A DNA stretch of 27,630 nucleotides from Candidatus Fraserbacteria bacterium (lineage in GTDB: Bacteria; Bipolaricaulota; Bipolaricaulia; RBG-16-55-9). The translations under genes and the position numbers were made by a program. The stretch covers positions 1-27,630 of the forward strand of contig JBBIPG010000031.1 in assembly GCA_037442925.1 (NCBI GenBank), read 5' to 3'. Of the stretch, positions 9,812-21,831 are shown piece by piece; position 1 is the first letter of the stretch, and each line of letters starts with the position of its first letter. Under the pieces are notes generated by a model. That model made no database searches and was not told where the DNA came from. It worked only from the letters and a program-made list of their open reading frames with translations.

Positions 9812-9927
9812 ACCCTGTGACAAGCCTGAAATATCGAGAGATCAGCCCGCAGACTTCAATTTCATGAATCGCTTGCTCGATGCCCTTCAGGTCGACTGCA
9901 GTACGTCTATGATAGAGGTAGATTAAG

Positions 9928-17285: not shown

Positions 17286-17639
17286 CTAAAGTGTGATCAG
17301 CGTGTAGCCTTCTTGGACGAGCTTGGCCACGCTGGGATGACCGCCGTACTCGGCGTGGAATGGGATACCGGCCTGGGCAATCTCGTTCTTGACTTGAAAC
17401 GCCTGTGCGCAATAATCACAAGCCCCCCCAATCAAGCCTGATTTCTTGACCTCTTGATAGAGCTTGTGATACTTGTGGTCGGGCTTTTCGAACTCCCGGA
17501 CCCATGTCGTGCCTGCCCCGTCGAAGATCAGCCGGACCTGATGACCAGCCTCTTTAAGATCCTTGGAGTAGAGAAGCCCATGGACCGCCCGGCCCATGTC
17601 CCCCGGCTGTGCGTGCAAAATGACTGCGAATTTCGCCAT
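17286..17639 (-). CDS. DsrE-like protein, paralog of 11641-12006
   Basis: LIFDGAGT, GACDYCA and GHPSV; SD GGGAGG. Confidence 0.8.
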   Translation of the reverse strand: MAKFAVILHAQPGDMGRAVHGLLYSKDLKEAGHQVRLIFDGAGTTWVREFEKPDHKYHKLYQEVKKSGLIGGACDYCAQAFQVKNEIAQAGIPFHAEYGGHPSVAKLVQEGYTLITL

Positions 17640-17684
17640 CGTGCCCCTCCCTTTCGACATTCATTAGTTGAGTTGAGTAGACGA

Positions 17685-17727
17685 ATCGTACTTCACCTTG
17701 AACCCTAAGACTGTAAGTGTGCTTACA
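17685..17727 (-). promoter_or_regulatory. Operator copy 6 (17712-17727) with -10 TACGAT (17690-17685)
   Basis: TGTAAGTGTGCTTACA, 21-bp gap on the minus strand. Confidence 0.78.
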
Positions 17728-17748
17728 AAGCCTGAAAGACTTTGAGGT

Positions 17749-17777
17749 TTGACAAGGGCCCTACTCTCATGCATAAT
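17749..17777 (+). promoter_or_regulatory. Sigma70 promoter TTGACA-N17-CATAAT for aroF-tyrA
   Basis: Near-consensus hexamers with a 17-bp spacer. Confidence 0.8.
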
Positions 17778-17806
17778 GGGCCCACTCTTCAGATGAGGTG
17801 ATGATA

Positions 17807-17935
17807 ATGCTCAAAGGTGATCGGCTTTGGCTGCAACAGGCAGTCACAGCTTGCAGGACGGCAGTTCTCTCCTCTTTCCACCTCCTCTCCTCTCGCTTCC
17901 CCTGGCGAGTTTGCCGCTACCCCTATAGCGCCTGA
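17807..17935 (+). CDS. 0-frame leader ORF of aroF (42 aa, MLKGDRLWL...)
   Basis: SD GAGGTG at 17795-17800, ATG 17807, stop TGA 17933-17935; codons 7-8 are CTT TGG. Confidence 0.7.
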
Positions 17936-18812
17936 GGCGCTTCCAACCAAGTCCAATTCCGCACCTGCTTCACTGGAAACTCAGAGTAGCGAACAGTTTA
18001 GACTAGCCAGCCGTCGGTCCCGTCCGCAGGACACGATTGTTGATGTGAAGGGCGTGAAAATCGGCGGCGAGGAGCTGGTGATCATGGCCGGGCCGTGCTC
18101 CGTGGAGAACGAGTACCAGATCCATACGATTGCGCAGCTGGTGGCCGAAGCAGGAGCCCGAATCCTGAGGGGTGGCGCTTTTAAGCCCCGCACGTCACCG
18201 TACAGCTTCCAAGGCTTGGGCCAAGAGGGGTTGAAACTGCTACGAACTGCTGCGGATGAGAACGATCTGCTGGTCATCACAGAGGTCTTAGATGTCCGCC
18301 AGATCGATCTGGTCGCCCAGTATGCCGACATCCTGCAGATTGGTGCGCGCAACATGCAGAACTTCGCACTGCTCAAAGAAGTGGGACTTACCCATCATGC
18401 TGTGCTCCTCAAACGAGGGATGGCTGCTACGGTGAACGAGCTTCTGATGGCTGCAGAATACGTGTTGTCCGCAGGGAACTCGCGAGTGATCCTCTGCGAA
18501 CGGGGGATCCGAACCTTCACGGACTACACACGCTTCACGTTGGATGTCGCAGCCGTTCCCGTTGTGAAGAGGCTCTCGCATCTACCCATCATTATCGATC
18601 CCAGCCACCCCGCAGGGCGACATGAGAACGTCATTCCGTTAGCACTGGCCGGGATTGCTGCCGGCGCAGACGGGTTGATCGTCGAAGTCCATCACAATCC
18701 CGAATGTGCTTTGAGCGATGGCCCTCAGGCGCTTCGACCCGAACAGTTCAGGCAACTCGTCGGAAAAGTTTCCGCCATGGCAGCCGTCTTGGGTAAGAAG
18801 TTTCTCGCGTAA
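17807..18812 (+). CDS. aroF: DAHP synthase type I-beta; predicted 334 aa via a +1 frameshift at 17825-17830 (ORF track start GTG 17817)
   Basis: [37 protein letters not shown] and DPSH. GTG 17817 has no properly spaced SD, and the next in-frame GTG lies inside the core. Confidence 0.9.
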
Positions 18813-18817
18813 ATGCT

Positions 18818-19720
18818 ATGGCTCGACCACGCACGCCTAGAAGAGTTACGATCGTAGGTGTGGGTCTGATGGGCGGCTCTCTGGGCATGGCCATCCGGCG
18901 ATGCTGCAAGGGCGTCGAAGTGATCGGCGTCGATCGGGAAGAAGCGACTCTCCAGCAGGCCCAAGAGCGCGGGGCCATCGATTGGGGTACACTGGATCTC
19001 GAGCAGGGCGTGGCCGAGGCGAATCTGGTCTTCTTGGCTACACCGATTCGGGTTATTTTGGAACTCTTGCCCGCTCTAGCAGATGGTATCGCGGAGAAAG
19101 CGATCGTCTCCGATCTGGGTTCGACAAAACTGCAAATCTGCCTTGCCGCAAAGAAGCTACTGCCCGAAAACTTCGTGGGCGGACATCCGATGACCGGCTC
19201 CGAGCGTCAAGGCATCGAAGCAGCGGACCCTTTCTTGTTCGAGAACGCGGTCTATCTCCTCACTCCGCTACGCCCTGGCGATGATAAGGCTGAGAGACTC
19301 GCGGCCTTTTTGGAGCAACTGGGGTGTTCGATAGTCTGCATAAGCCCGCAGCGGCATGATCGCTTGGTAGCCCACGTCAGCCATCTACCACAGCTTTTGG
19401 CAGTGGCTCTGGCAGACTTCATTGGGGAAAGGGCCGAAGCCGACAGCCTATACAAAGAATTGGCTGCCGGAGGCTTGCGAGACATGACCCGCATTGCGGC
19501 CTCGCCCTATGAGATCTGGCAGGACATTCTGATCACAAACCGGGATGAGATCGAGCAAGCCATGCAGGCATTGTTGTCACGGCTGCAAGACAGGTGTTGC
19601 ATCAGAGAAGAAGACGCTTGGCGCGAGAGGTTCGCGCGGGCAGCGCGCTTTCGCGCCGCGTTTCCTCGGCAATCGAAGAGCTTGGTTGACGCGTCCCACA
19701 CCGAGGGATATAATCAGTGA
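18818..19720 (+). CDS. tyrA: Prephenate/arogenate dehydrogenase
   Basis: VGVGLMGGS, SDLGSTK, GGHPMTGSE, HD...VSHLP and RDMTRIA. Confidence 0.93.
   Translation: MARPRTPRRVTIVGVGLMGGSLGMAIRRCCKGVEVIGVDREEATLQQAQERGAIDWGTLDLEQGVAEANLVFLATPIRVILELLPALADGIAEKAIVSDLGSTKLQICLAAKKLLPENFVGGHPMTGSERQGIEAADPFLFENAVYLLTPLRPGDDKAERLAAFLEQLGCSIVCISPQRHDRLVAHVSHLPQLLAVALADFIGERAEADSLYKELAAGGLRDMTRIAASPYEIWQDILITNRDEIEQAMQALLSRLQDRCCIREEDAWRERFARAARFRAAFPRQSKSLVDASHTEGYNQ
19686..19714 (+). promoter_or_regulatory. Sigma70 promoter TTGACG-N17-TATAAT inside the tyrA 3' end, driving the trp operon
   Basis: Hexamers at 19686-19691 and 19709-19714. Confidence 0.8.
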
Positions 19721-19748
19721 ACTCGTACACACCGGAGGGTGATTCAAC

Positions 19749-19817
19749 ATGAGAAGATTCTCAAGAAGACTCTCAAAGGGTGAGTATCTTTGGCTCTCCT
19801 CGTTCCGTTGTATCTAG
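19749..19817 (+). CDS. 0-frame leader ORF of trpE (22 aa, MRRFSRRLSKGEYLWLSSFRCI)
   Basis: SD GGAGGGT at 19734-19740, ATG 19749, TAG 19815-19817; codons 14-15 are CTT TGG. Confidence 0.7.
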   Translation: MRRFSRRLSKGEYLWLSSFRCI

Positions 19818-21256
19818 GCACAACCCCGCCTCAGGCCGTCCTTCCTCCCGTCGTGATGTGCCCATAGCTCGTTCCAAAAGCCATCTCATCATACGAGAGA
19901 TCCCCGCTGTGGAGCCCTTTGCGCTCTATCGCCGCTTGCGGAATCGTACTGGAGTCAGCTTTCTCTTAGAGAGTGCTCCGGGACCAAAACGCTTGGCACA
20001 GTTCACCTTCATCGGGTTTGACCCTGTGAGGGTCTTTGCTCTACAGGATGGAGTGCTGTTCGTCGACGGGAAGCGCAGAGACAGGCTTTGGTCGTCCGGT
20101 CAATTTCCTACGAGACACGCTTGCACAGCATCAGCCTTTCACTAGGGCAGAAGTCCCTTTTCTTAGCAGATTCAGCGGTGGCCTCGTTGGCTACTTTAGC
20201 TATGACTTCGTACACCATCTAGAGAGGCTGCCGGAGCCTACTCCACCACGCTCCTCCTTTCCGGACTTCGAGCTGGGCCTCTATCTCGATGGCATCGTCT
20301 ATGATCATCACCGCCATCGCGCCCATTATTTTTCTCACAGTGAGGATCGATCCCACGTTGTGATGGAAGCTCTAGCTGATCCCACTCCCTCTCCGGCCCG
20401 TCTTCGCGTCGATCGCTTTGAGTCCGACATAACTCAGCAAGAGTTCTGCGCGAGTGTCGCGCACGCCAAAGCGCACATCCAGTCCGGTGATATCTATCAA
20501 GTTGTGCTCTCCAAACAGCTAACGGCACCCTATGACGGCGACCTGCTCTTGTTTTATGAGCTGCTCCGTCGGATCAACCCATCACCCTATATGTTCCATT
20601 TGGATTTCGGCCCGCGCGTGATCTCCGGCAGTAGCCCAGAGATGCTCGTCTCCGTCCAAGGGAATCTCATCACGACCTATCCCATTGCGGGGACGCGCCC
20701 ACTCGGACGGAACGCCAAAGAGCGGAAGCGCTATGCTCGCGAACTCTTGAGGGACGAAAAAGAGCGTGCGGAACACGCGATGCTGGTCGATCTGGCCAGA
20801 AATGACATCGGGCGCGTGGCAGAATACGGCAGTGTACGTGTGCCCGAATACATGCGGGTGGAGTCTTTCAGCCATGTTCAGCATCTGGTCTCTCGCGTTG
20901 ACGGGTGCTTGCGAGCAGGTCTGGACGCCATCGATGCGTTGGCTGCGCTCTTCCCTGCAGGAACGGTGACAGGAGCACCCAAACCGCGTGCCATGGAGAT
21001 CGTCAACAATCTGGAACGGAGTCCCCGGGGCCCCTACGCCGGTGCTGTGGGCTATCTGTCGCTCAACGGCCATCTGGACACAGCCATCACGATTCGTACG
21101 CTCTTTGCAGATGCTCACGCCCAAAGACTCTTCCTGCGCGCCGGTGCCGGCATCGTCTGCGATTCCGTTCCGAAAAGAGAGTGGGAGGAAACCGAACGCA
21201 AACTCGAAGCCATGAAAGTCGCCCTAAAGGGAGCTGCCTCATGCGCGTTCTCGTGA
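19749..21256 (+). CDS. trpE: Anthranilate synthase component I in three successive +1 frames (predicted 501 aa with shifts at 19788-19793 and 20086-20091)
   Basis: FLLESAPG..FTFIGFDP lies in ORF 19780-20145. FSGGLVGYFSYD, GDIYQVVLS, NPSPY, SSPE, PIAGT, EHAMLVDLARND and PAGTVTGAPK lie in ORF 20036-21256. Confidence 0.88.
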
Positions 21257-21831
21257 TCGACAACTACGACTCATTCACCTACAACCTGGTGCAATACTTC
21301 GGGGAGCTGGGCTGCCAACTACGCGTCTTTCGAAACGATGAGCGAGACCTTGAGGAGATCAAAGCCCTCAAGCCCGAGCGGATCGTACTGTCCCCCGGAC
21401 CCGGCAACCCGCAAAACGATCGGGATTTCGGCATCTGCTCCTCCATTCTACGGGAGATCTCCCCATGCATTCCTACGCTGGGGGTGTGCCTGGGACATCA
21501 GGGAATTGCGGCGGTCTTCGGGGGACGGGTGATTCAGGCAAAGACGATTCGGCATGGCAAGACTTCGCGTATCTACCATGACGGCCAAGGGATCTTCCAA
21601 GGGGTCCCCAACGGCTTCTTGGCAGCGCGTTACCACTCGCTGGCAATCGATCGTGCCTCGCTGCCATCGGTTTTGGAAATCAGCGCCGAATCCGAAGACG
21701 GCGAGATCATGGGAGTGAGGCATAAAGACTATCCCATTGAAGGAGTGCAGTTTCACCCCGAATCGATTCTGACCGAGCACGGGAAGGCGATTCTGGCAAA
21801 TCTTCTGACGCACGGAGGTAGCGGGTCATGA
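21241..21831 (+). CDS. trpG: Anthranilate synthase component II (glutamine amidotransferase)
   Basis: IDNYDSFTYNL, SPGPG, GVCLGHQ and QFHPES; start overlaps the trpE end. Confidence 0.95.
   Translation: MRVLVIDNYDSFTYNLVQYFGELGCQLRVFRNDERDLEEIKALKPERIVLSPGPGNPQNDRDFGICSSILREISPCIPTLGVCLGHQGIAAVFGGRVIQAKTIRHGKTSRIYHDGQGIFQGVPNGFLAARYHSLAIDRASLPSVLEISAESEDGEIMGVRHKDYPIEGVQFHPESILTEHGKAILANLLTHGGSGS

Follow-up and report, generated by a model that had tools for sequence, protein, structure and literature searches.

In prfB, the gene for release factor 2 (RF2), the ribosome shifts by +1 on a slippery CUU-U to make a functional protein, and the rate of the shift is set by the speed at which the codon in the A site is read. 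The consensus of such sites, as given in a passage of a prfB survey, consists of a Shine–Dalgarno (SD)-like hexamer separated by three bases from CTTT, with a conserved C following the stop codon (PMC12421855). We analyzed a stretch of 27,630 nucleotides from Candidatus Fraserbacteria bacterium (assembly GCA_037442925.1, contig JBBIPG010000031.1; hereafter the window) and found a cassette closely resembling the prfB site, with the Trp codon TGG in place of the stop, within short leader open reading frames (ORFs) upstream of aroF and trpE. We propose that both genes are gated by a programmed +1 frameshift at a hungry Trp codon, which would sense charged tRNA-Trp; on the sequence comparisons reported below we put the probability of this reading at about 0.8.

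The arrangement shares with prfB the slippery codon, the hexamer three bases upstream, the C after the A-site codon and the functional protein in the +1 frame and, in the case of trpS, the feedback by which the product supplies the reader of the codon. It differs in that the A-site codon is the sense codon UGG, read by a tRNA, whereas the prfB stop is read by a protein factor; in that biosynthetic genes and a tRNA synthetase would be gated and the frame-0 product would be a throw-away peptide; and in that trpE has two serial sites, the second without an SD-like element. In attenuation by trpL (Rfam Trp_leader), as here, the translation of a short SD-led leader ORF reports charged tRNA-Trp. In contrast to trpL, the trpE leader has one Trp codon rather than tandem ones, the leader is fused to the enzyme out of frame, and we found neither terminator and antiterminator hairpins nor folding above the level of shuffled sequences nor a match to the Rfam model.

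Other +1 shifts have been described on sense codons or as sensors. At the yeast Ty1 site CUU_AGG_C, tRNA-Leu slips on CUU while a slow sense codon occupies the A site (PMC5009743), as we propose here, but Ty1 is a eukaryotic retroelement, the slowness comes from a fixed low tRNA level, and there is no feedback on an amino-acid pathway. Antizyme uses a +1 shift as a metabolite feedback sensor (PMC3113565), although its site is a stop codon, the polyamine metabolite itself is the stimulator, and the product is a negative regulator, in eukaryotes. In starved Escherichia coli a missing aminoacyl-tRNA provokes frameshifting at its codon (PMC5009743), and Trp shortage leads to frameshifting at Trp codons in human cancer cells (PMC13751296, PMC8942854); these are errors or side effects, whereas in the window the shift would be a designed route to an enzyme. 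Of functional trans-frame products under starvation, a passage of the 2016 review by Atkins et al. says that "no examples are known" (PMC5009743). In the literature outside subscription journals we found no natural frameshift gate at a Trp or other sense codon on prokaryotic biosynthetic or synthetase genes, which leaves its absence from print unproven.

Leader ORFs of trpE and aroF

The window spans an entire contig from a metagenome bin of 86 contigs (2.07 Mb). Genomes are numbered with a G, G000 being the one under study and the others its relatives. The right half of the window carries, on the + strand, aroF, tyrA and trpE-G-D-C-F-B-A, as recognized with Pfam and NCBIfam. The trpE leader and the adjoining part of the gene contain the following features:

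19686..19714, + strand: promoter-like site TTGACG-17-TATAAT, 11/12 matches, inside the end of tyrA
19734..19743, + strand: SD sequence GGAGGGTGAT, complementary to the 16S tail of G000
19749..19817, + strand: leader mini-ORF MRRFSRRLSKGEYLWLSSFRCI, ATG at 19749, 22 codons including one Trp codon, stop at 19815-19817
19779..19794, + strand: shift site 1, GGTGAG TAT CTT TGG C, with CTT at 19788-90 and TGG at 19791-93
19789..20088, + strand: N-terminal part of trpE, +1 relative to the leader, matching positions 3-57 of the Pfam profile Anth_synt_I_N

The region around aroF is built in the same way:

17749..17777, + strand: promoter-like site TTGACA-17-CATAAT, 11/12 consensus matches
17795..17802, + strand: SD sequence GAGGTGAT, 4 nt 5' of the ATG, complementary to the 16S tail of G000
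17807..17935, + strand: leader mini-ORF in frame 0, MLKGDRLW.., ATG at 17807, 42 codons and a stop, containing CTCAAAGGTGATCGGCTTTGGCT
17816..17831, + strand: cassette GGTGATCGG CTT TGG C, with CTT at 17825-27 and TGG at 17828-30
17826..18812, + strand: aroF (DAHP synthase), in the +1 frame from TTT GGC; Pfam DAHP_synth_1 at 1.2e-80, NCBIfam NF006421 above cut-off

At both loci the enzyme is encoded +1 to its leader, in a frame that is already open within the cassette. Downstream of the cassette, aroF offers no in-frame ATG, GTG or TTG until its conserved core is reached; the next GTGs (18045 and 18054) are inside the core. The sole in-frame start candidate before the core of trpE is GTG 19858, which is preceded by a pyrimidine-rich stretch instead of an SD. 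The motif GGTGANNNNCTTTGG (GGTGA-N4-CTT-TGG-C) occurs twice in the window against an expectation of 0.01, a count reached by 0 of 100 shuffles, and the region contains three promoter-like sites against 1.0 expected. The aroF leader has a second Trp codon further downstream in frame 0.

The 16S gene of G000 ends ..GGATCACCTCCTTTCT and its tail reads GGATCACCTCC, of which GGTGATC is the exact complement. With this end read, the complementarity of GGTGA to the tail, claimed in an initial annotation made from the window alone, holds, as does the motif common to the aroF and trpE leaders; the promoter, the SD, the 22-codon leader and its sole Trp codon in TAT CTT TGG C are likewise all present in the sequence. 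The frame relation of the enzymes to their leaders and a second frame change within trpE are additions to that annotation.

A second frame change within trpE

The reading frame of trpE changes once more downstream of the leader:

20086..20092, + strand: shift site 2, CTT TGG T, with CTT-TGG at 20086-20091 and GAC AGG just 5' of it, giving D-R-L-W; no SD-like element
20090..21256, + strand: C-terminal part of trpE, in a further +1 frame, matching positions 63-138 of Anth_synt_I_N and Chorismate_bind (3.5e-92)

The ORF at 19780-20145 matches positions 3-57 of the Anth_synt_I_N profile, and the ORF at 20036-21256, in the next frame, matches positions 63-138 and the chorismate-binding domain. In BLASTP searches against the unshifted orthologue of G008, residues 13-99 of the N-terminal piece align with 44-129 and residues 19-400 of the C-terminal piece with 130-515. 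The alignment to this orthologue places the frame change between AGG (20083-85) and GGT (20090-92), exactly at CTT TGG T. The 388 codons 3' of the site are open and 57-69% identical to orthologues.

Both sites are kept in G006, a genome of another genus with a TrpE 69% identical to that of G000. Its trpE leader reads MRSLPGEYLWFFF and contains the 15-mer GGTGAGTATCTTTGG of site 1 without a change; its internal site reads GAC CGG CTT TGG TCG, the flanking synonymous bases differing from those of G000. From the preceding stop to the conserved part, the new frame of G006 has no start codon. The open trpE frame measures 408 aa in G000 and 390 aa in G006, in comparison with 454-554 aa in the other 14 genomes with a TrpE match. 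The internal site keeps R-R-D-R-L in both genomes, and the nascent peptide may contribute there.

Positions 19600-20300 have the same letters in a second assembly of the probable source run (depth 18; no differences and no gaps), which excludes an assembler slip although, coming from the same run, it is no independent sample.

As a separate observation, trpE contains a terminator-like hairpin at 20020-20034 (GACCCTGTGAGGGTC followed by TTTGCTC), about 50 nt 5' of site 2; such sites are not above chance in the region.

Relation of the cassette to prfB

The prfB gene of G000 reads ..GTC GGG GAT CGC CTT TGA C, RF2 following in the +1 frame. In five relatives CTT TGA C is preceded by GGT GAT CGC, GCT GAT CGC or GGT GAT TAC, giving the G-D-R-L cassette in an identical register; in G000 and these five a +1 shift is required for RF2. 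The prfB site of the genome and the phylum can be written GG[T/G]GATCGCCTTTGAC, which the Trp cassette nearly matches with TGG replacing TGA, and the aroF cassette is a single base away from the prfB cassette of the relatives. By this comparison, which supports the prfB-like cassette of the initial annotation, the Trp cassette is the one that the lineage uses for RF2, with TGG instead of TGA. All three sites of the window have TGG in the A site rather than the TGA of prfB-type sites; judged by its parts, the cassette works like prfB, but is not prfB.

In both leaders GGTGAT or GGTGAG is followed by 3 nt and CTTT, the spacing described for prfB in the passage cited above (PMC12421855). The SD-like element had been noted as lying 4 nt further upstream than in prfB. 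This is right for the register of pairing with the 16S tail and wrong for the spacing from hexamer to CTTT, which equals that of prfB; as prfB in these genomes shares the geometry, the difference is no objection to the cassette.

We compared 50 related leaders, each preceded by an SD of the GAGGTGAT type. The slippery codon of their cassettes is CTT in 29 and GTT in 21, the three window sites all having CTT TGG. A C follows TGG in 40 of the 50, at a position left free by the search pattern, and positions -12 to -10 are variable. A ribosome reading UGG in frame 0 meets a stop 1-34 codons later. The frame-0 codons are kept as GGT, GAT and CGN rather than as synonyms, the third base of CGN alone being free. 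This base would be a second codon position in the +1 frame, and variation upstream of the site is in this respect opposite to that in the +1 ORFs, although the search pattern itself accounts for part of the regularity. Two variants, CGT GAT and AGT GAA, which were detected independently of the pattern, alter the Gly residue and keep GTGA. The kept synonymous codons and the Gly variants together favour SD pairing over the nascent peptide as the stimulator at the leader sites. Of the KG[DE] peptide noted in the two window leaders, the GGT GAT codons are kept among relatives, whereas the Lys gives way to V, I, L, A, S, R and others.

RNA structure was considered as the stimulator and rejected. 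Folding at the three sites is no better than in shuffled sequences (z = -0.45 and -0.37), and the small CAAAG/CTTTG hairpin, which the initial annotation had offered as a possible stimulator, is not conserved and is lacking from the trpS leaders of relatives. Terminator-based attenuation was set aside likewise, no terminator-like site being found between the leaders and the genes, and for transcriptional slippage the run of three T was judged too short. A search of 17300-20400 against Rfam (E<=1) gave two chance eukaryotic matches only. Among genuine D-R-L/V-W peptides the NTT codon is found in 0 of 12, too few to mean anything, and two apparent CTT cases are shadow frames of real genes. A blind scan of G000 for +1 ORF junctions at NTTTGG returned 26 candidates, mostly ordinary gene junctions, and was therefore uninformative.

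The cassette in related genomes

To place the window leaders among those of relatives, we searched 41 genomes, G000 and its 40 nearest, for TrpE by homology; the set was chosen without the motif. A TrpE match was found in 16 genomes, and the motif is present in the orthologous leaders: in 15 of the 16 the cassette immediately precedes a trpE read in the +1 frame; in the sixteenth (G035) it is followed by a TrpB-like gene and then directly by trpE. In 13 of the 14 trpE genomes besides G000 and G006, an SD-led mini-ORF encoding ..K-G-[DG]-[RH]-[LV]-W.. stands right before the +1-frame gene. The linkers from the site to the TrpE core are 15-53 codons long and unrelated in sequence, yet the frame is never broken, and in 11 of 20 trpE loci the linker is devoid of start codons. 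In 14 of 39 loci with a fused enzyme, no ATG, GTG or TTG occurs between site and core; a candidate start is present in 23 but has no SD-like sequence, and in the remaining 2 it is accompanied by a weak SD-like 4-mer. What sequence comparison establishes is the anatomy of the cassette, its conservation and its identity with that of prfB, as well as the frames of the enzymes relative to their leaders, the absence of starts of their own and, in relatives, translation of the +1 frame.

For trpS, we collected loci by homology alone, 27 of 30 being evaluable. The cassette lies before trpS, with the gene in the +1 frame, in 18 of 18 genomes without a TrpE match in comparison with 2 of 9 genomes with one. 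This split follows family lines, and the counts are therefore not independent events. In G000 itself, trpS has an ordinary SD and ATG and no cassette.

In the class, which in the data used makes up the whole phylum and comprises 184 genomes, the pattern GGTGRTCGNSTTTGG was matched 95 times in 70 genomes, and the reversed pattern 10 times. We read 70 of the 95; another 8 are trpE leaders already seen and about 15 are unread. Leaders before Trp genes make up 42 of the 70:

before trpE: 11
before a TrpB-like gene: 12
before trpS: 18
before aroF: 1
within other ORFs, or lacking a plausible leader: 28

As a side observation, trpS of G001, of the same genus as G000, is in two pieces on contig C14, at 20328-20657 (residues 2-111) and 20788-21273 (residues 159-320); the gene may be disrupted or carry an insertion.

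TrpB-like genes and a Cys version

At loci of the TrpB-like-gene type (L039-L055, family f10) no enzyme is fused to the leader. Instead, the Trp cassette is followed by a +1 ORF of 39-61 codons, which in 10 of 12 loci ends in SFFPEQLEPAW, with a second Trp codon at the end. Among ten sequences of this ending from two genera, 3, 1 and 10 of the 11 columns vary at codon positions 1, 2 and 3, respectively, and such almost exclusively synonymous variation is characteristic of a translated and selected peptide; of the evidence for translation of the +1 frame it is the strongest. The +1 ORF lacks a start preceded by an SD; an SD is present in front of the downstream gene, and the RNA between the two is C-rich. 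The +1 ORF may be a second sensing step, for example an arrest peptide or a shield from Rho.

A version with a Cys codon is present in G000 itself. On the minus strand of contig C25, at about 9895-9909 (L358), a consensus promoter and an SD precede ATG AAG GGT GAT CGC CTT TGT TAG (MKGDRLC), followed by a 45-codon +1 ORF ending ..HHCSCTVGCGL, with three Cys codons, and by an SBP_bac_5 transporter gene with its own SD. Across the class, 95 of 184 genomes contain the Cys-codon cassette (TGT or TGC; GGTGRTCGNSTTTGY). We read 30 such loci, of which 16 lie before cysK-like genes and 1 before cysE; in comparisons with NCBIfam, three cysK (TIGR01139) and the cysE (TIGR01172) score above cut-off.

At five places, G008:C167:2097-2157, G004:C179:3506-3566, G006:C10:79-127, G002:C171:293-356 and G168:C131:358-394, two Cys cassettes occur in tandem on the same strand with match starts 22-49 nt apart. 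The pairs look like serial gates, comparable to those proposed for the window trpE.

Proposed mechanism and alternative explanations

In the mechanism that we propose, translation would begin at the leader ATG behind its SD and proceed in frame 0 through G-D/E-R/Y-L. At that point peptidyl-tRNA-Leu (anticodon GAG) would occupy the P site on CUU, the 16S tail would be paired with the SD-like GGUGA(U) located three bases further upstream, and UGG in the A site would await Trp-tRNA. With charged tRNA-Trp plentiful, UGG would be read, the nearby frame-0 stop would be reached, and no enzyme would be made. With charged tRNA-Trp scarce, the tRNA would slip from CUU to UUU, GGC (Gly) would be read, and translation would continue into the enzyme. 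In trpE of G000 and G006 two gates would stand in series, and the output would follow the product of the two shifts, giving a tighter off state and a steeper response. At trpS, the feedback logic of RF2 would have moved to the synthetase. G000 has tRNA-Leu(GAG), a single tRNA-Trp(CCA) and tRNA-Gly(GCC). AroF contains no Trp and TrpE one, so both could be made during a Trp shortage. We infer the occurrence of the shift, its efficiency and its control by Trp supply from the comparisons described above.

Several observations weigh against this mechanism. The support for a frameshift sensor is comparative, and the organism is known only as a metagenome bin. The internal trpE site lacks an SD-like element, and two inefficient shifts in series might yield very little TrpE. 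About 40% of the related cassettes (21 of 50) have GTT as the slippery codon, and tRNA-Val re-pairs less well on UUU. As the cassettes were collected with a pattern, the invariance of their core is partly built in. The 986 long ORFs of G000 show no avoidance of CTT-TGG in frame (107 observed against 91.7 expected), which implies that the heptamer alone is not very shift-prone. The fused aroF layout is seen in G000 only: in G009 the aroF downstream of a cassette has an SD to itself, and the leaders of other aroF orthologues are different. At 16 of the 18 trpS loci a start codon (ATG, GTG or TTG) without an SD remains where the gene would usually begin, and reinitiation after the leader stop may contribute there. 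TrpE scans of metagenome_contigs and genome_contigs returned distant relatives only (<=59% identity); a first scan of such distant trpE loci with a GG.G[AG] filter found no leader of the kind, and of 145 trpE loci outside the phylum 6 fit a loose layout, three of them archaeal, while control patterns fit 0-6.

The strongest competing explanation, which we nevertheless consider improbable, does without a frameshift. The mini-ORF would be an ordinary leader or upstream ORF, and the enzymes would start at weak SD-less codons (the GTG within GGTGA, or a GTG or ATG downstream) by coupling or reinitiation. A +1-frame GTG is indeed present inside every cassette of the phylum, trpE has GTG 19858, and the start codons retained at trpS lie a few codons past the leader stop, as such an explanation would have it. 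The GTG in the cassette is, however, a by-product of the SD-like GGTGAT, and it is also found in prfB of G006, G010, G039 and G095 (four of the five read), where the frame-0 ORF of RF2 reaches about 20-50 codons further upstream. Its distance from the SD ranges from 10 to >40 nt, linker lengths vary with the frame always preserved, and a ribosome stalled at UGG would cover the GTG and give the wrong regulatory sign. Starts of this kind also leave the internal frame change of trpE unexplained, where the new frame of G006 is devoid of start codons, and they do not fit aroF or those trpE linkers (11 of 20) in which no start codon precedes the conserved core.

Marginally less probable again is a +1 shift that is real but constitutive, setting a fixed low expression or adding an N-terminal tag without any sensing of Trp. 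Sites of the prfB type have appreciable basal shift rates, and CTT-TGG in frame is tolerated elsewhere in G000, both of which would suit a constant leak. Such a leak does not explain the match between codon and gene, with UGG before trpE, trpS, the TrpB-like gene and aroF and UGU or UGC before cysK and cysE, nor the fact that genomes without a trpE match have the cassette on trpS, the charger of the tRNA reading UGG. A Trp codon before Trp genes and a Cys codon before Cys genes are predicted by a hungry-codon sensor and not by a constitutive shift or an oddity of start sites, and hungry A-site codons are described as raising +1 shifting in a passage of the 2016 review (PMC5009743).

That the frame changes are defects, through an assembly error or a decaying trpE, is very unlikely: the window comes from a metagenome bin and was found only in the probable source run, but the second assembler yields identical letters, both trpE sites recur in another genus with different synonymous bases around them, the codons past site 2 are open and conserved, and the remaining trp operon is intact.

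Extending the frameshift sensor to the whole lineage, we hold it to be somewhat more probable than its opposite that the phylum runs its amino-acid homeostasis through a modular hungry-codon sensor sharing the prfB cassette. UGG would serve trpE, aroF, the TrpB-like gene and trpS, and UGU or UGC would serve cysK, cysE and possibly a transporter, with serial sites sharpening the response. At targets with their own start, the shifted ribosome would make the SFFPEQLEPAW sensor peptide and thereby control the downstream gene, for example by shielding the transcript from Rho.

If true, the mechanism would be a third general ribosomal readout of amino-acid supply, beside leader-peptide attenuation and T-box/tRNA sensing, and the double gate in trpE suggests a simple steep response without a protein regulator. 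It makes an old question testable, that of a sense codon as a programmed frameshift sensor, as the cassettes are short and portable. The 16S tail of E. coli should be able to pair with them. For annotation, it would mean that trpE, aroF and trpS of the phylum are likely called truncated, split or mis-started; trpE of G000 would be taken for a pseudogene, and Trp auxotrophy would be assigned to the organism. It would also be a natural use of the hungry-codon frameshifting for which the passage quoted from the 2016 review knew no example (PMC5009743).

Other leaders

Outside the phylum, short leaders followed by a +1-frame trpE that lacks a start of its own were seen at L219 and L221 (archaeal), L112/L220 (Methanobacteriaceae) and L108/L109 (metagenome). 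Their peptides are MNGG[CY]LW (GGT TAT CTT TGG), MKGSECFW (TGT TTT TGG C) and MGYSLW; they are conserved pairwise, and their number is not above that of controls.

On contig C53 of G000, upstream of 10805 (L207), and likewise at L187, L189-L192, L194-L199, L203, L204 and L208, the second DAHP synthase paralogue, which has an N-terminal regulatory domain, follows a Phe-rich leader peptide (..LFIFPTFWPPRGA, ..FMFFVASFFFG..). A G+C-rich hairpin overlaps the stop of the leader, which looks like a classical Phe attenuator.

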